From an uncultured Verrucomicrobiae bacterium (GTDB taxonomy: Bacteria; Chlamydiota; Chlamydiia; Chlamydiales; Rhabdochlamydiaceae), in assembly GCA_963839895.1 (NCBI GenBank), contig CAWIWQ010000001.1:626724-690723 (forward strand): a DNA stretch of 64,000 nt. The letters run 5' to 3'. The first letter of the stretch is position 1. Each line of letters starts with the position of its first letter. Made by a program: the position numbers and the translations under genes. A model generated the notes under the pieces. That model was given only the letters and a program-made list of their open reading frames with translations. It had not been told where the DNA came from and searched no databases. Of this stretch, positions 9,728 through 63,194 are shown piece after piece.

Positions 9728-11059
9728 ATGTCTGTTTCAACAACTTCAATTCCTCTCTTTTCTTACACTCGTCTTCATAACTTAGGCTTCAGTGACAATT
9801 TAGATCACGTCTACATTTTGGCTAAACGGCAACTTTTAAATATCGAAAATTATGTAAATAGTTCAACCGTCATTGATGATGCAGTATGCAAAAGAGAATT
9901 AGCTGCATTAAACGACTATATTCTTGAATGTGAAAAGTCCAAGACAGAATATTATCAAAGTGGCTTTAAGGGTCGCATTAGCAAAATTGCCACATTAATA
10001 ATCTCGAGATTAACGTTTAGCCGAACTCCGATGGAGCGGTTGGAACATATTCACAAATATCTGGATTTGCGGTTAATTAAATTATCAAAATCATTTGAGA
10101 TGATATCAAAATCAGATTTTGCAAAATACTTAAAAAAAGCTGACTCAATAGATACAAATCAACAAGTTCAAATTTACCAATTTGCAGATTTACCGGAAGT
10201 AGCTTTTATTGTAGATGATAATAAAGAGGTAAATCTTGTTTTTCCTAATATCGTTCCAATAGCAAAAGGAAGTTTAAAAGAGTTTCATATTGTAATAAAT
10301 TTGACTAAGCAGAAAAAAAGAGGCTTCTCAAGGCGAATTCGTCAAGACGCGCATTCGGTTGCACAGATGGAACGAGAAATTTGCTTTTCCAGATTGTTCA
10401 TGGAAAAGCACATCCCAATTCCTAAATTGAAAGCCGCAATAGGAAATCAATTAATTATTACTCAATATTGCAATCAAGGCAACTTAATGGATTACTTGCA
10501 GAATAATCCTGATTTACCTTTGAAGACAAAAATTGATATTGCGTGTCAAATTGTTAATTTTGTAGCTGAGTTGCATAAGGAATTTATAAATAAGCATGGT
10601 AATAAAGATAGTATAATTCATTGTGACATTAAACTTGAAAATGTGCTTATGAAAAAAAGAAAAAATGGTGAGCTCCGAGCTATGGTTAATGACTTTGATT
10701 TATCCATATATGAAAGTGAGGCTAAATTACATTATTTTCGAGGTTCCCCTGCGTGTTTTTCACCTGATGTAGCTGCTAAAAAACCGCCGACAAAAGCCGA
10801 TGACGTTTGGAGTTGTGGATTACTTCTCTTCAACTTATTTTGCCCTGATATACGCTTACCCTGGGATATCGATTGCGAGAATATTCATGAAATTTTTGAA
10901 GGTATTAGAGCTTTAGAAAAAGATTGGTGTATAAAATATCTCGAAAAGCATCAATTGCCTCCAGCATTGATTACTGTTATTAATTATATGCTGAATCCCG
11001 CTGCTAGTGAAAGACCTAATATCAATTCCGCTGCAAAAGCACTCGCTGACTTAAAATAA
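9728..11059 (+). CDS. Eukaryotic-like Ser/Thr protein kinase
   Basis: IAKGSLK (degenerate Gly loop), HCDIKLENVL catalytic loop, NDFD, GSPACFSPD, DVWSCG, ERP. Confidence 0.88.
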   Translation: MSVSTTSIPLFSYTRLHNLGFSDNLDHVYILAKRQLLNIENYVNSSTVIDDAVCKRELAALNDYILECEKSKTEYYQSGFKGRISKIATLIISRLTFSRTPMERLEHIHKYLDLRLIKLSKSFEMISKSDFAKYLKKADSIDTNQQVQIYQFADLPEVAFIVDDNKEVNLVFPNIVPIAKGSLKEFHIVINLTKQKKRGFSRRIRQDAHSVAQMEREICFSRLFMEKHIPIPKLKAAIGNQLIITQYCNQGNLMDYLQNNPDLPLKTKIDIACQIVNFVAELHKEFINKHGNKDSIIHCDIKLENVLMKKRKNGELRAMVNDFDLSIYESEAKLHYFRGSPACFSPDVAAKKPPTKADDVWSCGLLLFNLFCPDIRLPWDIDCENIHEIFEGIRALEKDWCIKYLEKHQLPPALITVINYMLNPAASERPNINSAAKALADLK

Positions 11060-39557: not shown

Positions 39558-40568
39558 ATGAAACTATTTAAGCATTTCTGCATCGCATCATTGGCATGCA
39601 TCACAAGTATTTCCGCTGGGCAAAAACTCGATCATAATGCGTTATTTCTCGATGGAGAGTTTCTGTATTGGCGCCCTGATCAAACAGCGATGACCTATTG
39701 CTTAGTTGCAAATGAAACCATCACCCCTATCGGTACCAAAAACAAAGAAGTCCATCAAGATTCCAACTGGGCTCCAGGGTTTAGAGTGGGAGCTGGATAT
39801 ATTCTGGCACACACTTCGTGTGACATATCCGCATACTGGACCCGTTTTCATCACTCGATGCACAGCTCTAGTCCTTCCGGACCATTTATCTTTGGAACAC
39901 AGTTGCTTGGAGTGGGCGGTGGGCTAGTCCTTGGAGGAACGGGAGTTGACGCAGGAAAAGCTCATAGTAATTGGCATTTAAAAATGGATCTCGTCGAACT
40001 CGATTTTGGCTACAATTTATGCTTCCATGAACGATTTCTTTTGCACCCTTATATCGGCGTAGAAGGGGGTTGGGTTAACCAAAATAGAACGGTTAAATAT
40101 GATCATTTTTTTGATACATCCTCACAGATTTTTTTCGATTCTGAGATTCATCATAAAAACAATTTCCATGGCGTGGGACCCAAAATTGGCATCAATACTG
40201 ATTTCTCGCTCGGGGCCGGCTTTGGCTTGATTGGAAACTTTGCGGCAGTCTTTCTGTGTGGAAAAGCCAATAATCCAGTGAAATATGAAATAGAAGGAGA
40301 TGAAAGCAGTTTTCCACTTCCTAAAACAGTCGTGAAGTACAAACAAAACAGACTGGTTCCTGCATTGCAAGCGCAATTAGGATTAAACTGGCGGTGGAGA
40401 TTGGCCTGTCATTTTACTTTTACTCTAGGCGCGATGTATGAAGTTCAATATTTCATCGGCACATGGCGTAATCAAAACTCAGGGATTCAAAACCTGTACA
40501 TCGCCGATGCAGGCTATGGAAACCTGATGCTGCAAGGATTAACAGCCCAAGGAAAACTCACCTTCTAA
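39558..40568 (+). CDS. Lpg1974/Legionella MOMP-like outer membrane porin
   Basis: Signal peptide, GEFLYWRP, WAPGFRVGAGY, FHGVGPKIG, C-terminal GKLTF. Confidence 0.8.
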   Translation: MKLFKHFCIASLACITSISAGQKLDHNALFLDGEFLYWRPDQTAMTYCLVANETITPIGTKNKEVHQDSNWAPGFRVGAGYILAHTSCDISAYWTRFHHSMHSSSPSGPFIFGTQLLGVGGGLVLGGTGVDAGKAHSNWHLKMDLVELDFGYNLCFHERFLLHPYIGVEGGWVNQNRTVKYDHFFDTSSQIFFDSEIHHKNNFHGVGPKIGINTDFSLGAGFGLIGNFAAVFLCGKANNPVKYEIEGDESSFPLPKTVVKYKQNRLVPALQAQLGLNWRWRLACHFTFTLGAMYEVQYFIGTWRNQNSGIQNLYIADAGYGNLMLQGLTAQGKLTF

Positions 40569-43664: not shown

Positions 43665-44099
43665 CTATGTGTGTTTCTTATGACTTGGGCAGACTTCATG
43701 CCCTGGATCCCACCAAAGCAGCCACAGAACGCTTCCCTCTTTGATGCCCCAGATTCTTTTACAGCCCGTAATACGAAGAGAAAAAAGTTCATCATAATCA
43801 TCTTTAGATAACTCAACCAGGCGTTTTTGAGCTTTGGGGCATAGATCAGTGACTTGAACCAAATGAGAACCATTATCTCGCAGGTTTTGCCAAGTAAGTT
43901 TCTGCGAATCAAATATTTTTTGAAAAAGCTCACGCAATAACAGAGGATCGAATTTATTCTATCCCCAGGGCCCATCCATATCCATTTGCCCTGCTCTAAA
44001 CTCAGGTAGGCATGAATCACTATAGGGAACTAACTTTGGAACCTTATTTTCAGTGAAGTTAACAAATGTTTTTGGCTTTTTCTGATCTTTTCGAGACAT
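43665..44099 (-). pseudogene. Putative toxin gene paired with Panacea antitoxin, interrupted by in-frame TAG
   Basis: One reading frame from ATG 44099 (MSRKDQKKPK..DGPWG*NKFDP..LFSLRITGCKRIWG..LLWWDPGHEVCPS) with a single TAG at 43959-43961. Confidence 0.7.
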
Positions 44100-44123: not shown

Positions 44124-44603
44124 CTAACTCTCGATAGGTTGACCCAAAGCATCTACACTACTGTAGTATTCGTCCATAGTTGCGAGTTGGATTTCTACTT
44201 CCCCTCGCTCCCCCGGCTTAAGGCCGTGTCTGGCTTCAATCCATGGCAGTTCTCGATGAGTGAGATCACTAAGCCACTGGGCTGATTTATCGCCATAGGC
44301 ATTTAGAACATTATCTATGGTGTCTTTCTGATTGATCGATATATGACTCGCATTGCCCTTGGAGAGCTCTTTTACATAAAACATGCCTTTGTGCTGATTG
44401 TAGAGTTCTTTTACAACAGGGCCATTTGCCCAAGCTAGAATCTTCTCTTTAAACAATGGTTGTTCATCCCATACAAGAGACCATGCTTGACAATAGTACA
44501 CCAATTTTTGCAATTTCCAAGCAGTAAGGGGATGTTTTTTAGGTTGTTTTTCTAATATGTAGGAGGCTACATCCAAAACTGAAACAGGTTTACCTTTATC
44601 CAT
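44124..44603 (-). CDS. Panacea-domain (DUF4065/SocA/GepA-like) antitoxin
   Basis: KLQKLVYYCQAWSL, AWANGPVVKELY, LSDLTHRELPW. Confidence 0.88.
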   Translation of the reverse strand: MDKGKPVSVLDVASYILEKQPKKHPLTAWKLQKLVYYCQAWSLVWDEQPLFKEKILAWANGPVVKELYNQHKGMFYVKELSKGNASHISINQKDTIDNVLNAYGDKSAQWLSDLTHRELPWIEARHGLKPGERGEVEIQLATMDEYYSSVDALGQPIES

Positions 44604-44830
44604 GCGAGACTTCTTTTTTTTCACCACATCATACCCCACATGTTCAAAAAAAATCAACCCATATCATTCGCAATGCAATAAAGCCATTGCTCACTATCTA
44701 CTTGATTAGCTCATACCTGTCAAATTTTAAGGTCCAATTAATTTTTGGTTGTGCGTTTTTTATCAGTTACAGTAAATAGTTCTTATCATCTTGTCCCTCG
44801 AGAAAACGATGGACACACAAGGAGAAATGT

Positions 44831-45130
44831 ATGTCAGAAAAGCTTAACAGACAACAAACTGAAGCTCAAATCAACCTGCGCGCATGGAACGATCCTGCTT
44901 TTAGGGATCAGTTAAAAAAGAATCCGCATGCGGCATTGAAAGAAATGGGAATGGCACAAGTGCCCGCCAATTTAGATATTCGCGTTGCTGAAGAAGACAA
45001 TAATCAATGGGTGATTCGCCTGCATAAACGCCCCCTAAATTTCAGAGAACTGTCGGAAATGGAACTTGAAAAAGTGGCTTGTGGAGAAACTCAGGAGGCT
45101 AAGTGCTGTCCAAAGAGTCCAGTATCCTGA
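44831..45130 (+). CDS. NHLP (nitrile-hydratase-like leader) family RiPP precursor
   Basis: RAWNDPAFRDQLKKNP, PANLDIRVAEED, ELSEMELEKVACG leader end; 14-aa core ETQEAKCCPKSPVS; AAGGAG RBS. Confidence 0.8.
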   Translation: MSEKLNRQQTEAQINLRAWNDPAFRDQLKKNPHAALKEMGMAQVPANLDIRVAEEDNNQWVIRLHKRPLNFRELSEMELEKVACGETQEAKCCPKSPVS

Positions 45131-45495
45131 ATTTGGATCTCAGTTTTGTCCAGCAACGACTTCTGGACAGAGAACAGTGGGATCAAGAAGATGTTATCGA
45201 AGCCATCAGAAGATACAAAAACTTCTTGATCCTCATCTATAAGTATCCTGATCATCTGCTTGCTCCTGCGTCAGATATCGATGAAGTTTGGCACAATCAT
45301 ATTCTATTTACGCGAGAGTATTCAAAGGCTTGTGAACACATTTTCGGGGGGTATTTGCATCATACCCCCGCTCAAAGTTCTAATACTGAAGAAAAAGACC
45401 TCATGAAAAACGCTCAACAGCATACCGCTGAACTTTATGTGAAGGAGTTCAATGAACCCTATTTTCTTGAGATAGATGTTTCCTCATTTTGGTAG
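45103..45495 (+). CDS. GRDP/DUF1399-like His-rich protein
   Basis: RRYKNFL..APASDIDEVWHNHILFTREYSKACEHIFGGYLHHTP; AGGAGG (45093-98) before GTG 45103 inside the precursor gene. Confidence 0.75.
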   Translation: MLSKESSILNLDLSFVQQRLLDREQWDQEDVIEAIRRYKNFLILIYKYPDHLLAPASDIDEVWHNHILFTREYSKACEHIFGGYLHHTPAQSSNTEEKDLMKNAQQHTAELYVKEFNEPYFLEIDVSSFW

Positions 45496-45764
45496 ACTCT
45501 TTTGGCCAATGTTAATCTAAAATACTTAAGATTAAAGACTTAACAAAGATTGTCGGCTGTTAGACATTTTTGGTTTCTATTTTCCACGCTTTTTTAAATA
45601 TTACTTATATAAAACAATCGATATCTTTAATAAATTAAAATTTTAATTTAAAATCGGATGATCATTTAAATACTTAAATAATAAAATTAGTATATTTTTT
45701 ATATTATTAAAATTAAAATACCATTACAATAGTATTAATTCATTAATTAACATAAGTATTTATT

Positions 45765-47594
45765 ATGACAGTTTCTAATAATAATAATTTTAAAGATCCC
45801 TACCTTCCTGTTGCTGATGCGAAGAAAAATTTACGTTACGCTGCGATGACCTGCGCAAGTTTTACAAATGACGCATCGTGGATTGAACCTTTTAAAATCA
45901 GATTGTTTTCTGCTGAGCAAAGCGACGTGCAAATCTCGAATCAATTACTTGAAAAAAGAAAATATTGTTTCTTTGATAGAAATACCGGATTAAAGATAGC
46001 TATCGGCGAAGGACAACATGAAGTTTTAATTGCTTTTGGTGCGATGGGATCAGCTGCGACAGAAGTTGCAGAAGAAGAGAAAAAAGCGTTTTTAGAAAAA
46101 CAAAAAGGACTAGCAACGAGCAATCTATATGGGATCTCCGTTGTTCCAGCGTATGAAGAAGCTGCAAATTTTGTCTCTGAAATTCAGGTCCATCCGTATT
46201 TTCGCAATAAGAAAATTATTCTTGTAGGACAGTCATTGGGAGGAAGTCTTGCTCAATATGCTGCCTTGAAAAATGCATTAGAAGCAAAGTGCTTTAATCC
46301 TATTCCTCTCGGAAGAGCGCATATCAATGCCTTAAAACAACAGAAGGTTTCTTTCGAGAATTCGAATCATTTGATAACTATCATTTCCAGCGAAGGAGAT
46401 TATGCGACAGATATCCCAAATTCAATGATTGTAAAAGCCGTGAATCTGGTAGCTACAGGTCCTCAACTTTTTGGAAAAAAATATCCCATTCCCAGTGCTT
46501 ATAAAGATTTAATCGAAAATCATTCCTATTTCATGGGAAGCCTGATGAAATATATAGGATATGACATCAGAACAAAAGCTAGCGAGCTCCATCCCAATGA
46601 TATTTTTTGCGAAGAAACGAATGATATTCAAATTGATTTAAAGCGCACGAAACAAATCATTGCGTGGCTTTATGAATTAAGAGAAAATCTAAACAATAAA
46701 CAAACAAACACTGTCCGCACTGTTCTTTATTTTATTAAAGAAAATGAAAAGCAACTATTCAATTACATGTGTTTGCAAGTATGGCTAGCTAATAACGGAG
46801 AAAATTTTGGAGACGCAAACTACGGGGAAAGAAGAATTTGGGATAATAGCGAGCTTCTCCTAAAAATCAAAGGCGCTGAGGGCACACTTTTAGATACCCT
46901 CATCCATCACTTTGAATCCCTAGATCAGATGCTCAAGCTTAAGAATTCACTGGCAGTGATTCGAGAACAAGCATCCGCAATTAAAAAAGAATTGTTTTGC
47001 ATTCCCTATTTCTCAATGGTTCCGATCCAGATGAATCAGTTAATAGATGCCTGTGTAGATCCTTCTCGTACATTGAGTCTTCAAGAATCTTCTTCTTTAT
47101 TATCAATCCTTGAAAACCTGGAACGAAAGCTTATTGACGGCAAAGTCTCACATGAAGAAAAGGTCAAGCTTTTGCAAGAGCTTGAAGCGAATCAACAACT
47201 ATTGTTTTTAGCTCTCTTGATGGTCTTAAGGACAGAAATTCAACATAAGTTAGATTTTCCTACTTTAAAAAACCTTGTTTTCGCAAATCCTTCGTTGCTT
47301 TTTCAGAACCAAAATGAGTCAACTCTTGTCAAAGTCATCGAATGCTTAAAATGTCTAAATACAATTCAGCAGGCCACAAATGACTTGCATGCATGTAAAA
47401 AAGTCTTAGAAAAAGCCTTCTCTCATTACCCTTATTCCAACACTTTGGAATCCCGGGATTTTCAATCGCTAATTAATCTTTTGAATCGATTTTCGGAATT
47501 TTTTTCTATTCCTTTAGACCATGAAAGGCTCCTTAAACAATTTCATGAAAATGGTCGTGAATTGGGTGAGATGGTTTCTTCTACTGGACTTTAG
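45765..47594 (+). CDS. Lipase (class 3)-like alpha/beta hydrolase, candidate effector; 3' end cut by IS repeat
   Basis: LIAFGAMG, ILVGQSLGGSLA nucleophile elbow, FNP, EGDYA; last codons and stop lie in the IS inverted repeat. Confidence 0.72.
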   Translation: MTVSNNNNFKDPYLPVADAKKNLRYAAMTCASFTNDASWIEPFKIRLFSAEQSDVQISNQLLEKRKYCFFDRNTGLKIAIGEGQHEVLIAFGAMGSAATEVAEEEKKAFLEKQKGLATSNLYGISVVPAYEEAANFVSEIQVHPYFRNKKIILVGQSLGGSLAQYAALKNALEAKCFNPIPLGRAHINALKQQKVSFENSNHLITIISSEGDYATDIPNSMIVKAVNLVATGPQLFGKKYPIPSAYKDLIENHSYFMGSLMKYIGYDIRTKASELHPNDIFCEETNDIQIDLKRTKQIIAWLYELRENLNNKQTNTVRTVLYFIKENEKQLFNYMCLQVWLANNGENFGDANYGERRIWDNSELLLKIKGAEGTLLDTLIHHFESLDQMLKLKNSLAVIREQASAIKKELFCIPYFSMVPIQMNQLIDACVDPSRTLSLQESSSLLSILENLERKLIDGKVSHEEKVKLLQELEANQQLLFLALLMVLRTEIQHKLDFPTLKNLVFANPSLLFQNQNESTLVKVIECLKCLNTIQQATNDLHACKKVLEKAFSHYPYSNTLESRDFQSLINLLNRFSEFFSIPLDHERLLKQFHENGRELGEMVSSTGL

Positions 47595-49337
47595 CCATTC
47601 GACAAAACAGTTAACACTTATGTGGTTTTGTCGGAGGCTATCGCCTCCCGCGCCACCGTTCCGCATTGTCGGCGTATTTATTCGCCAGCGCGCTGACCGC
47701 GCGTCGGGCGAAAAATACACCAACAACGCGTCTGCTAAAATTACTCAAGCCACCTCAGACAGTTCATCCACTAAGGCAGCAATTCGCCCTGGGGAAAGAG
47801 TTTCTACATGGTCGCCTTTTTCATAGAGCCAATTAAAATACCTACTACCCCATAGATGCCGACGCACTTCGCGGAGCATATCGGCAAAAGTTAAATGCGT
47901 TTTTTTGTACCACGCTGTGCTGCCGAGTTTCAGGGGAGAGGATGTTTGTAGGTGATTTGCAATGAGCACAATGAGAGAATATAAACCGAATAATGCCGGA
48001 GTAGTACGTGCTATTGCCTTGTCCGACCATTGTCGTTGAGTCTCGACTCCAAGATGCTCGCGTACTTCTCTATGTGTCACTTCTTGGTTCCATCTAGCAA
48101 CAAACCATTCGATTATTTCTATGGCCGTCAGTTGAAAAAGCTCATCAACCCCCATCAAAGCAATAGGTTCGTATTCTCCTGCAAGATCCTTGAGCAAAAC
48201 CAGCCGAATAGGCAATGGCTCATCTCCTTGCGTACACCAGAGACAGGTCGTAGTTGCATAGGAGACTCGCCTTATTTTGCCTCCGTACCATTTGACTTCA
48301 GCCTCTTTCCATTTTAAATCGGGTTGTTTGAACATCTGCTTGGGAGAAAATAGCCTACGATCTTTTTTGGGTGGTCTTCCACAACCTGTGTACTCTGGAG
48401 GAAAATCGAACAATCGTGCATCCATTCTTAATCGTGTCACGAGGCGAACGTGATATTTTATGCAGATCCATCCAAGCCGTACATTGGCAAAACCGCCATC
48501 AGCAGTCAGAATGATTTTTAAGGCGGGGAACCATCGATGTAATATTTTGACGAGCTGAATGGTCCAATCGATTGTGGTTTTATGCCGTTTTCCCGCTTTT
48601 GTATCCGCTTTTTCAGACGTTGCAAGAATCGTTAAAAAAGGCAAAGCCAGCAGACGAGGAACCCAAGAATATTGTTTCAGCACCATGACTGTAATCCATT
48701 TAAGCCCGAAGCATTTCACTATATGTTTTTGCGAAGAGCGCACTGCATCGCGATAACAGCCGATTGCTTTGATTTTACGACCGCTGCGTCGTTCGATATG
48801 CTCGTCAACAGCAATGACTAAAGGACCAGTCATATTTTCTATCAGCTGTTTCAGTAAAATTTTTCCGCCTTCGAGAGGATTCCATGCATCCCTGCTCAGC
48901 ACTCGGTGATATTTATCAAAATGCTCTTCTCCTTGCATGCCAAGAATTTTAAGTGCTGCGCATACAGTACGCCCTCCGCGACAAAGAATTGCTCCTGCCA
49001 AAAGCAACATCGCCTTGGAGGCTGTTTTGGGTCTTAAAAATATTGTGGAAAAAGGCATCAAAACTGTTAGAATGCTTTTTGGTAGAGATATCATGGTTCC
49101 GCCATTGACGTTTTGGTTTGCACTAAACATCTTAGCGTGTGCTTCTTGATATCTCTACTATTTTTTTGAGTCATGCGTTCTTTAGCGCACGCGTTGTCGG
49201 TGTATTTTTCGCCCGACGCGCGGCCAGCGCGCTGGAGAATAAATACGCCGATAACGCGGAACGGTGGCGCGGGAGGCGATAGCCTCCGACAAAACCACAT
49301 AAGTGTTAACTATTTTGTCGAATGGCTAAAGTCCAGT
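47583..49337 (-). mobile_element. IS701-like insertion sequence with 157-bp imperfect terminal inverted repeats
   Basis: 47583-47739 is the reverse complement (few mismatches) of 49181-49337; single DDE transposase between them. Confidence 0.82.
47745..49094 (-). CDS. IS701-family DDE transposase
   Basis: IAVDEHIERRSG, TADGGF, RLRMDARLF, RWNQEVTHREVREHLG, TFADML. Confidence 0.88.
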   Translation of the reverse strand: MISLPKSILTVLMPFSTIFLRPKTASKAMLLLAGAILCRGGRTVCAALKILGMQGEEHFDKYHRVLSRDAWNPLEGGKILLKQLIENMTGPLVIAVDEHIERRSGRKIKAIGCYRDAVRSSQKHIVKCFGLKWITVMVLKQYSWVPRLLALPFLTILATSEKADTKAGKRHKTTIDWTIQLVKILHRWFPALKIILTADGGFANVRLGWICIKYHVRLVTRLRMDARLFDFPPEYTGCGRPPKKDRRLFSPKQMFKQPDLKWKEAEVKWYGGKIRRVSYATTTCLWCTQGDEPLPIRLVLLKDLAGEYEPIALMGVDELFQLTAIEIIEWFVARWNQEVTHREVREHLGVETQRQWSDKAIARTTPALFGLYSLIVLIANHLQTSSPLKLGSTAWYKKTHLTFADMLREVRRHLWGSRYFNWLYEKGDHVETLSPGRIAALVDELSEVA

Positions 49338-63019: not shown

Positions 63020-63093
63020 TAGCGGCAGTCGGATTTGAACCAACGACCCACGGATTATGATTCCGTTGCTCTAACCAACTGAGCTATACCGCC
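63020..63093 (-). tRNA. tRNA-Met(CAT), probably elongator
   Basis: GGCGGTATAGCTCAGTTGGTTAGAGC..ATCATAA..GGTTCAAATCC..GCCGCTA cloverleaf; CCA not encoded. Confidence 0.93.
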
Positions 63094-63103
63094 GAAGAAA
63101 AAA

Positions 63104-63176
63104 TAGCGGGGGAAGGATTCGAACCTCCGGCCTTTGGGTTATGAGCCCAACGAGCTAACCACTGCTCCACCCCGCG
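63104..63176 (-). tRNA. tRNA-fMet(CAT) initiator
   Basis: CGCGGGGTGGAGCAG.., GGG-CTCATAA-CCC anticodon arm, unpaired C1. Confidence 0.93.
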
Positions 63177-63194
63177 ATAGGCCTGCAAAAGAAT

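Follow-up and report, generated by a model that had tools for sequence, protein, structure and literature searches.

A gene pair for an NHLP-type precursor and a GRDP-like protein in environmental Chlamydiae, a candidate minimal RiPP-like system with a putative Cys-directed maturase

In a 64-kb stretch of DNA from an uncultured chlamydial bacterium (contig CAWIWQ010000001.1 of assembly GCA_963839895.1; "the window" hereafter means this whole stretch) we find the gene of a 99-residue NHLP-type precursor peptide overlapping the gene of a 130-residue protein with a GRDP/DUF1399-like domain, which we call the partner. The two genes can be read as a minimal, split member of an undescribed class of RiPP-like systems (RiPP, ribosomally synthesised and post-translationally modified peptide), with the partner acting as a probably metal-dependent, Cys-directed maturase, and we favour this interpretation with moderate confidence. 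It draws on the conservation of the pair, on chlamydial gene clusters that link the domain to known RiPP machinery, and on the Cys-bearing peptides that accompany the domain in other bacteria. All functional statements rest on comparative genomics. The loci compared are mostly from metagenome-assembled genomes (MAGs), and because the genome scan relied on peptide patterns resembling the query, the taxonomic proportions among its hits are not representative.

The original prediction for this locus had described a precursor with a leader ending in VACG and a short core with adjacent cysteines, and had guessed at the families TIGR03793 for the precursor and PF07173 for the partner. The sequence bears out the description, and both family matches lie above their curated cut-offs. 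The precursor ends in ...ELEKVACGETQEAKCCPKSPVS (a longer stretch of the same end reads ...LEKVACGETQEAKCCPKSPVS) and matches the NHLP leader model TIGR03793 with 57.3 bits against a cut-off of 50.9, residues 7–85 aligning to positions 2–77 of the 77 in the model. It also matches the nitrile hydratase (NHase) alpha family, PF02979, with 35.3 bits, and its newer precomputed Pfam name is RNP_Burkhold. A protein search returned 34 precursor homologues with 61–76% identity, many of which share contigs with relatives of the partner. The AlphaFold2 (AF2) model of the leader contains helices at residues 7–38 and 76–83, with a per-residue confidence (pLDDT) of 76–88 over most of residues 11–90 and of 59–61 at the N-terminus and at residues 51–60. 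The only Foldseek matches to this model were NHase alpha chains and two nuclear magnetic resonance (NMR) structures of proteusin precursors, a weak but coherent set. The family profile of the leader aligns to NHase alpha at residues ~125–189, after the metal-binding Cys cluster, and also at 55–95; the C-x-L-C-S-C metal site of NHase alpha is absent from the precursor, and such NHase alpha homology lacking the metal-binding Cys cluster is a criterion of the NHLP family. The Cys-Cys pair of the core was also considered as an equivalent of the NHase metal site, and this was ruled out by the alignment to residues 125–189, past the Cys cluster.

Across the family (alignment A1) the leader ends in L-S-E-E-x-L-E-K-V-A-x-G. 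A83 and G85 are invariant and the residue between them varies (A, C, M, S, T, L, R, G or N), giving A-C-G in the window and A-A-G in most relatives. The core that follows is almost invariant, with the consensus E-x-Q-E-A-K-C-C-P-K-x-P: in the 34 sequences Q88, C92, C93, P94 and K95 never change, and E89, A90 and K91 are at least 90% conserved. AF2 gives the core a pLDDT of ~51, and it is predicted to be flexible. More distant chlamydial NHLPs encoded beside the domain have Cys-containing cores that differ from that of the window. The cores of classical NHLP precursors are hypervariable (PMC2887384).

The partner matches the GRDP-like model PF07173 with 38.1 bits against a cut-off of 22.7 (residues 31–74 on model positions 94–141 of 143). 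A protein search found 59 close homologues, and the newer Pfam family UCP032817-like (PF27765) is precomputed for the window partner and for all 58 homologues. AF2 predicts a six-helix domain with a pLDDT of 89 and a predicted TM-score (pTM) of 0.85. The motif D-x2-WH-x-H..C..G..HH-x-P, picked out in the original prediction from this one protein, turns out to be a near-invariant family signature. Over 210 domains the near-invariant residues are Y38, P55, D60, W63, H64, H66, T70, Y73, C77, G82, H86, H87 and P89, and the signature D-x2-W-H-x-H ... Y ... C ... G ... H-H-x-P, complete in the window partner, is 90–100% conserved. The family is large: an exhaustive profile search gave 14,237 clusters at 50% identity with E ≤1e-3 and 6,242 with E ≤1e-10, many of them multi-domain. 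To our knowledge no biochemical function has been assigned to the GRDP/DUF1399 (UCP032817-like) domain. GRDP proteins (GRDP1/2) are known from plants, and in the full-text literature DUF1399/PF07173 appears almost only in plant papers, plus one fungal transcriptome study; in no paper found were GRDP, UCP032817 or PF27765 linked to RiPPs.

NHLP leaders of the TIGR03793 type usually lie beside known maturases (YcaO/cyclodehydratase, LanM, radical SAM, PCAT). As had been predicted, none stands beside the pair: tblastn detected no YcaO, SagB or PCAT homologue within the window, and Pfam scans of some of the flanking proteins showed no LanM-type or other known maturase class. What does adjoin the precursor gene is the partner gene, in an arrangement that matches the earlier description in each detail. 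The two genes overlap by 28 nt, the GTG start of the partner takes its first G from the end of the K91 codon and its TG from the C92 codon, and a perfect AGGAGG precedes it inside the precursor reading frame. Translation of the partner is, on this arrangement, probably coupled to that of the precursor gene.

The expectation that such pairs would recur in a neighbourhood survey held from both sides. An overlapping partner gene accompanies the precursor in 9 of 9 metagenome loci, and an NHLP gene adjoins the partner gene in 15 of 16 chlamydial-type loci from species-representative genomes. Twelve of these 15 are of the KCCPK type with the same overlap; two more (L022, L024) have precursors with diverged cores upstream, and in L023 the precursor lies downstream. 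The overlapping pair is represented by 21 distinct DNA versions from independent assemblies, in all of which the partner starts on the first Cys codon, with ATG in 13, GTG in seven and TTG in one; GAGG is kept in 18 of the 21. Synonymous variants occur among these versions at every core codon (CAG or CAA for Q, four codons for A, TGC or TGT for C, four codons for P), which shows that conservation of the core reflects selection on the peptide itself. The surroundings are entirely different between the window, L001 (MFS, cyclase and MarR genes) and L003 (NfeD, pyruvate dehydrogenase), and clustering of all open reading frames (ORFs) within 5 kb revealed no recurrent neighbour of the chlamydial pair but the precursor. 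Judged by these comparisons the pair is a conserved unit, far more than chance would give.

A link to peptide maturation comes from other Chlamydiales. Two proteins from Chlamydiales MAGs, P0107 and P0250, consist of a winged helix-turn-helix (HTH), a leader-peptide-binding domain of the thiazole/oxazole-modified microcin (TOMM) type (TIGR03882, 72–74 bits, cut-off 36.9) and, at the C-terminus, a GRDP-like domain sharing 46% identity with the window partner. Their nearest relatives, P0251–P0264, carry a YcaO domain where P0107 and P0250 carry the GRDP-like domain, and residues 3–297 of P0250 are 55% identical to residues 2–291 of P0251. As these alignments read, the GRDP-like domain replaces YcaO in the TOMM leader-binding fusion protein of Chlamydiales. 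In the corresponding loci (L089 and L090) the fusion gene is followed by genes for an NHLP precursor (54.1 bits, core SCASPSGCFGPP), an NHLP-type HlyD, a PCAT and a second ABC transporter subunit (ABC2), the peptidase/ABC exporter matching TIGR03796 with 890.7 bits against 853.3. Another cluster, L024, repeats the arrangement of the window with the exporter added: a RecX gene, the NHLP precursor gene (core ATYRENICATEEPRG), a stand-alone GRDP-like gene that overlaps it, and then HlyD, PCAT (860.6 against 853.3 bits) and ABC2; no other maturase candidate was found in this cluster, which leaves the stand-alone GRDP-like domain as the only one. The classical version is present in L092, a Chlamydiae MAG, where an NHLP precursor (core VGLSWYC) is accompanied by a fused C-D cyclodehydratase (YcaO) and a SagB dehydrogenase.

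Outside the Chlamydiae the domain is again accompanied by Cys-bearing segments. In cyanobacteria, candidate phyla radiation (CPR) bacteria, actinobacteria and others it carries C-terminal tails with 1–9 or more Cys, often as repeats, such as AAFCAR six times (P0196), AAWCGRE five times (P0212), SYCG four times (P0247), AAYCW three times (P0195), TCDNPSR three times (P0246) and AACLTLP twice (Nostocales). His-rich loops (HHHPHHG) and Cys/Gly-rich tails also occur among relatives, and some members combine a membrane segment with a GGCGGCGG tail. One of these, a Lysobacter protein (L085:4261-5922), has a GRDP-like domain at its N-terminus, followed by a TIGR04222 membrane domain (106 bits) and a GGCGGCGG tail; MNIO enzymes have been proposed to act on TIGR04222 proteins (PMC12452194).

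Members of the gammaproteobacterial or Legionellales type end in a basic amphipathic tail that has no Cys. In 21 of 28 such tail-less gammaproteobacterial loci, one to seven tandem ORFs of 17–22 codons follow closely in the same orientation (of the remaining seven loci, two lack downstream sequence). They share the consensus MKKLFKLLKKAxSAxCx, have strong Shine-Dalgarno sites and look like an unannotated family of mini-precursors: among 37 of them a Shine-Dalgarno sequence precedes 34, Ala is found at −2 in 36 and at −5 in 32, and Cys is penultimate in 34. When the mini-precursor pattern was searched for over all loci, 37 of its 45 matches lay just downstream of tail-less domain genes. The window core, with A90-K91-C92, presents the same A-x-C context as the fused tails and the mini-precursors. 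The common denominator of the family is one domain plus a Cys-bearing segment, which may be part of the same chain, be encoded by very small genes of its own or be carried by an NHLP leader.

These observations bear on what the partner does. A single domain is accompanied by many cores, as would be expected of an enzyme more than of a partner binding 1:1, and both the substitution for YcaO behind a leader-binding module and the dedicated peptidase-exporters of two chlamydial clusters argue for an enzyme acting on peptides rather than for a 1:1 partner or an immunity protein. The partner had been proposed as a new maturase or binding partner for the Cys core, and this proposal gains support from the YcaO-replacing fusion, from the L024 cluster and from the Cys peptides found family-wide. 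In the mechanism we envisage, the partner would bind a metal through D60, H64, H66, H86 and H87, with Y38, Y73 and C77 nearby, and the conserved set of four His, one Asp, two Tyr and one Cys suggests such a metal centre. It would recognise the precursor and covalently modify Cys of the A-x-C(C) motif, and so would be functionally analogous to MNIO enzymes while standing in for YcaO. For the chemistry we offer a speculative proposal to which we attach a low probability, namely that Cys is oxidised or heterocyclised in a reaction requiring O2 and a metal, which would give a redox-active or metal-chelating group; it is favoured by analogy, because YcaO and MNIO enzymes act on Cys and the preceding residue. 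Since the core of the KCCPK clade is conserved, no peptidase or exporter is adjacent and translation appears to be coupled, its product may act inside the cell, or as a small protein that retains its leader, as bufferins do, and not as a secreted, diversifying antibiotic.

A broader proposal is that the GRDP/DUF1399 domain is the class-defining maturase of a new and very widespread RiPP class, a small metal-dependent enzyme of a new helical fold that would modify Cys in an A-x-C context near the C-terminus of the peptide. We regard this as a serious possibility that falls a little short of an even chance. Its substrates would be met as fused tails (self-modifying), as tandem mini-precursors or as NHLP-type precursors, and in Chlamydiae the domain would have displaced YcaO from a TOMM-type pathway.

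Several results weigh against assigning the partner a maturase role. No relative of the partner was found in the Protein Data Bank (PDB), either by fold (Foldseek; best E-value 1.5, TM ≤0.33) or by sequence (hmmsearch; best E-value 0.43), no RiPP recognition element (RRE) is recognisable in the stand-alone partner, and its putative metal centre is read from conserved residues. No peptidase or exporter was found within the 64 kb, so that cleavage and export are unsupported for the window clade, and the leader does not end in a true double-glycine site, given the variable residue in front of the invariant Gly. A conserved core together with apparent translational coupling resembles the subunits of a complex more than a classical precursor–enzyme pair. 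No RNA-seq data of the organism were found, fragments of the stretch being present in four metagenome runs only, none of them RNA.

The main rival to the maturase interpretation remains that the two proteins form a stoichiometric complex that binds a metal, for instance as a metallochaperone, buffer or sensor, and involves no covalent modification; we consider it unlikely, with a probability low enough to be secondary and high enough to be taken seriously. The metal would be ligated jointly by the partner's His cluster and the Cys-Cys tail of the NHLP-like protein, and in the fused forms one chain holds both sets of ligands. Much of the window fits this picture: the gene overlap suggests that translation is coupled and that both proteins are made in roughly similar amounts, the core is conserved and not hypervariable, protease and exporter are not nearby, and the NHLP fold derives from a subunit of a metal-binding enzyme. 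The His-rich loops and the Cys/Gly-rich tails of relatives are in keeping with it as well. It accounts less readily for up to seven mini-precursor genes, or up to six fused cores, per domain, which are better explained by an enzyme, for the replacement of a catalytic YcaO domain behind a leader-binding module, and for the dedicated peptidase-exporters of L024 and L089, which imply a released product.

It is also conceivable, though improbable in our view, that the GRDP-like domain is a metallopeptidase that removes the leader or excises repeated cores beside A-x-C and leaves Cys unmodified. Excision would be needed for the fused forms with repeated cores, the window has neither a C39 peptidase nor a true double-glycine site at the leader end, and the conserved His/Asp set is compatible with a Zn hydrolase. 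What all the associated peptides have in common, however, is Cys and not a cleavage context, and in mini-precursors of 17–22 residues whose Cys is next to last there is little to cut off. A C39 peptidase-transporter is already present in L024 and L089, and the partner shows no HExxH or other known peptidase signature in a Pfam scan and no fold match.

More doubtful still, and to be given little weight, is a role of the partner in immunity, as a chaperone or in regulation, the peptide being unmodified and bacteriocin-like; the model would be class II bacteriocin operons, in which a small helical immunity gene comes after the structural gene. In favour of such a role, the partner is small and all-helical, its gene comes right after the peptide gene, and relatives occur in NHLP export clusters with no recognised maturase. 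Against it, the domain is ancient and very widespread, being found in the many clusters counted above and in the plant GRDP proteins; its near-invariant His/Asp/Tyr/Cys signature is unlike that of fast-evolving immunity proteins; it is fused elsewhere to Cys tails and, in YcaO's place, to a leader-binding module; and the window, having no exporter, offers no obvious self-intoxication to guard against. Finally, an artefact, be it a frameshifted single gene or an adjacency and core conservation imposed by dual coding, is effectively refuted: although the ribosome-binding site and start codon do lie inside the most conserved core codons, the two frames with the start on a Cys codon are kept in all 21 DNA versions and no single fused NHLP-GRDP ORF was seen, the synonymous variants in all core codons and the choice among ATG, GTG and TTG starts rule out a dual-coding by-product, the N-terminal residues of the partner are its variable ones, and the downstream precursor of L023 means that the association survives rearrangement.

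Among known systems, the pair can be compared first with the NHLP/proteusin-type TOMM precursors (Haft et al. 2010, PMC2887384). The window precursor belongs to the same family and has Cys in its core, related chlamydial clusters use the same NHLP HlyD, PCAT and ABC2 exporter, and the leader-binding module of P0250 shares its 55% identity with that of a YcaO enzyme, P0251. It differs in having the GRDP-like domain in place of YcaO (searched with P0251) and SagB (searched with the L092 protein), in a conserved instead of a hypervariable core, in a leader end of A-x-G in place of the Gly-Gly cleavage motif, and in the window having no match to the NHLP export system (TIGR03794, TIGR03796, TIGR03797; tblastn), which is present in L024 and L089. 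The Cys peptides of MNIO (DUF692) enzymes, namely methanobactins, bufferins and the putative TIGR04222 substrates (PMC12452194), resemble the window system in that conserved Cys motifs are targeted by small gene sets and in that the cores are conserved and the products are metal chelators rather than antibiotics; L085, moreover, joins a GRDP-like domain to a TIGR04222 protein. Unlike in MNIO systems, Pfam scans of some of the flanking proteins detected no DUF692 or DUF2063 gene at the window, the precursor has no signal peptide, and the partner is a 130-residue helical domain with no detectable relation to the MNIO family, so that shared chemistry is conjecture. A search for a DUF692-type family recurring near the partner found none in 80 loci.

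Plant BURP-domain peptide cyclases and their burpitides (PMC12186524, PMC12874468) alternate between fused, autocatalytic forms and split forms, as the GRDP-like family does, the likeness being one of logic only. A metal is the suspected cofactor of a His-rich domain in both, and GRDP1/2 too are plant proteins. The BURP domain is nonetheless unrelated to the GRDP-like domain in fold and sequence family; it uses Cys-His motifs and copper to cross-link aromatic side chains, whereas in the GRDP-like family the cores are C-terminal to the domain and the constant residue is Cys. Compared with NHase alpha and its partner or activator, the likeness lies in the homology of the leader to NHase alpha and in a small pair of proteins encoded by overlapping genes; the precursor, however, aligns after the Cys cluster and is without C-x-L-C-S-C, and no similarity of the partner to NHase beta or NHase activators was found. 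Class II bacteriocins have in common with the window a small helical protein encoded right after a leader-bearing peptide, and with related loci C39-ABC exporters. Their double-glycine leader of 15–30 residues, C39-ABC exporter and poorly conserved immunity protein find no counterpart in the window, where the leader is of the folded NHLP type and 85 residues long, no exporter is present, and the partner comes from an ancient family whose conserved signature looks catalytic and whose domain is elsewhere fused to its presumed substrates. The system is not a TOMM, lanthipeptide, proteusin-type radical SAM or MNIO system, the defining enzymes being absent from the window (YcaO, SagB and PCAT by tblastn, the others by Pfam scans of some flanking proteins), and would best be described as a RiPP-like system with an undescribed maturase family.

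Should the partner prove to be a Cys-directed maturase, a testable biochemical role would be gained for a domain of unknown function whose family is large, with at least 14,000 clusters at 50% identity. There would then be a new RiPP class with unusually simple gene sets, one domain and one peptide or a single self-contained protein, and a fourth enzyme type known to use NHLP leaders, together with a natural swap of YcaO for an unrelated domain behind the same leader-binding module. Environmental Chlamydiae conserve the two-gene module, and relatives abound among Legionellales-like bacteria; more speculatively, a conserved Cys-derived peptide in these bacteria, perhaps metal-chelating or redox-active, could matter for their survival inside amoebae.

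The coordinates of the locus and of the related loci are collected in Table 1. The promoter candidate listed there is weak evidence, as such sites were no more numerous in the scan than in shuffled sequence.

Table 1. Features of the precursor–partner locus (window coordinates) and of related loci (locus coordinates).
Feature	Position or locus	Strand	Basis and remarks
Sigma-70-like promoter candidate TTATCA-18-TATCAT	44760..44789	+	Upstream of precursor gene; consensus scan, 9/12 positions matched
Shine-Dalgarno AAGGAG	44819..44824	+	6 nt 5' of precursor ATG; read from sequence
Precursor gene, NHLP-type, 99 aa + stop	44831..45130	+	ORF; TIGR03793 match
Leader region, residues 1-85, ending ...LEKVACG	44831..45085	+	TIGR03793 residues 7-85; AF2
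Core region, residues 86-99, ETQEAKCCPKSPVS	45086..45127	+	Alignment A1; conserved Q88, A90, K91, C92, C93, P94, K95
AGGAGG ribosome-binding site of partner gene	45093..45098	+	Within precursor codons Q88-E89-A90; 4 nt before GTG
A90-K91-C92-C93, A-x-C motif	45098..45109	+	Common to fused tails and mini-precursors of other family members
Partner gene, GRDP/DUF1399-like (UCP032817-like), 130 aa + stop, GTG start	45103..45495	+	ORF; PF07173 match
Partner motif D60-E-V-W63-H64-N-H66	45280..45300	+	Frequencies over 210 domains: D 0.98, W 1.0, H 0.96, H 0.97
Partner T70, Y73, C77 on helix 5	45310..45333	+	Over 210 domains: T 0.97, Y 1.0, C 0.90
Partner motif G82-G-Y-L-H86-H87-T-P89	45346..45369	+	Over 210 domains: G 0.93, H86 0.90 (Asp 0.07), H87 0.98, P 0.94
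Cluster with GRDP-like fusion, NHLP precursor and exporter	L089:8003-14509; L090:7917-14423		Chlamydiales
Mini-precursor array loci	L025, L027, L028, L033-L035, L038-L046, L050, L052, L053, L072, L077, L084		Legionellales-like and other Gammaproteobacteria
Example of a mini-precursor array locus	L039:6424-6699 and 10129-10600

Additional genes and variants were seen at family loci elsewhere. Gly/Cys tails similar to that of L085 are present in L076, L081 and L086. Small Cys-ended ORFs lie directly upstream of GRDP-like genes in two loci that have neither an NHLP gene nor mini-precursors, ...ANCSGHCQSGTCMAE in L029:5804-5956 and ...ESNCYINGCSK in L021:5650-5793, and these may be further precursor types. 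In CPR/DPANN-type loci (L005, L055, L056, L066 and L067, e.g. L067:6367-6966) Cys-tailed GRDP-like genes are followed, 20–570 nt downstream, by a gene for an S-adenosylmethionine (SAM) methyltransferase, TehB-like or proline-N-methyltransferase-like. We considered this gene as a clue to the C-P-K motif of the window and dropped it, the CPR tails being without X-P-K. Beside the cyanobacterial fused forms (L047, L060, L062, L063, L069, L078, L080, L082 and L088), whose tails have two A-A-C-L-T-L-P-like motifs, there is nearly always a convergent gene for a protein of ~770 residues (e.g. L062:6518-8839, minus strand) with a sigma-70 region 4 HTH, NB-ARC and TPR repeats. In L100 (4198-5019) the partner gene breaks off after the H-H motif and runs into a fragment of a protein-tyrosine phosphatase (HCSAGVGRTG), the same chimera being P0115; this may be an assembly chimera, or else a copy that has been rearranged or is decaying.

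By Pfam the genes flanking the pair in the window are unrelated to it and include those of a SocA/Panacea-like antitoxin, a lipase-like protein, a DDE transposase, HAD hydrolases and a Legionella_OMP-type porin, among others; PADLOC matched neither the pair nor its neighbours to a known defence system. The antitoxin-like gene (PF13274, 68 bits; 44124-44657, minus strand) is divergent and lies upstream of the precursor gene, followed by a 90-residue ORF with no family match (43665-43937, minus strand) that could be its toxin partner. Downstream of the pair (45496-47594) a very AT-rich spacer of 270 bp precedes the gene of a 609-residue protein that has only a weak lipase or alpha/beta-hydrolase nucleophile-elbow match (GQSLGG) and could be effector-like. 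A DDE_5 superfamily transposase (83 bits; 47745-49130, minus strand) follows 2.2 kb downstream of the pair, and the region around it looks like accessory or mobile DNA. The porin gene (Legionella_OMP family, 128 bits) is at 39558-40568 on the plus strand. The earlier suggestion that the host is an intracellular symbiont is supported only indirectly, through the chlamydial relatives and this porin. Two tandem tRNA-Met genes lie at 63020-63177 on the minus strand.

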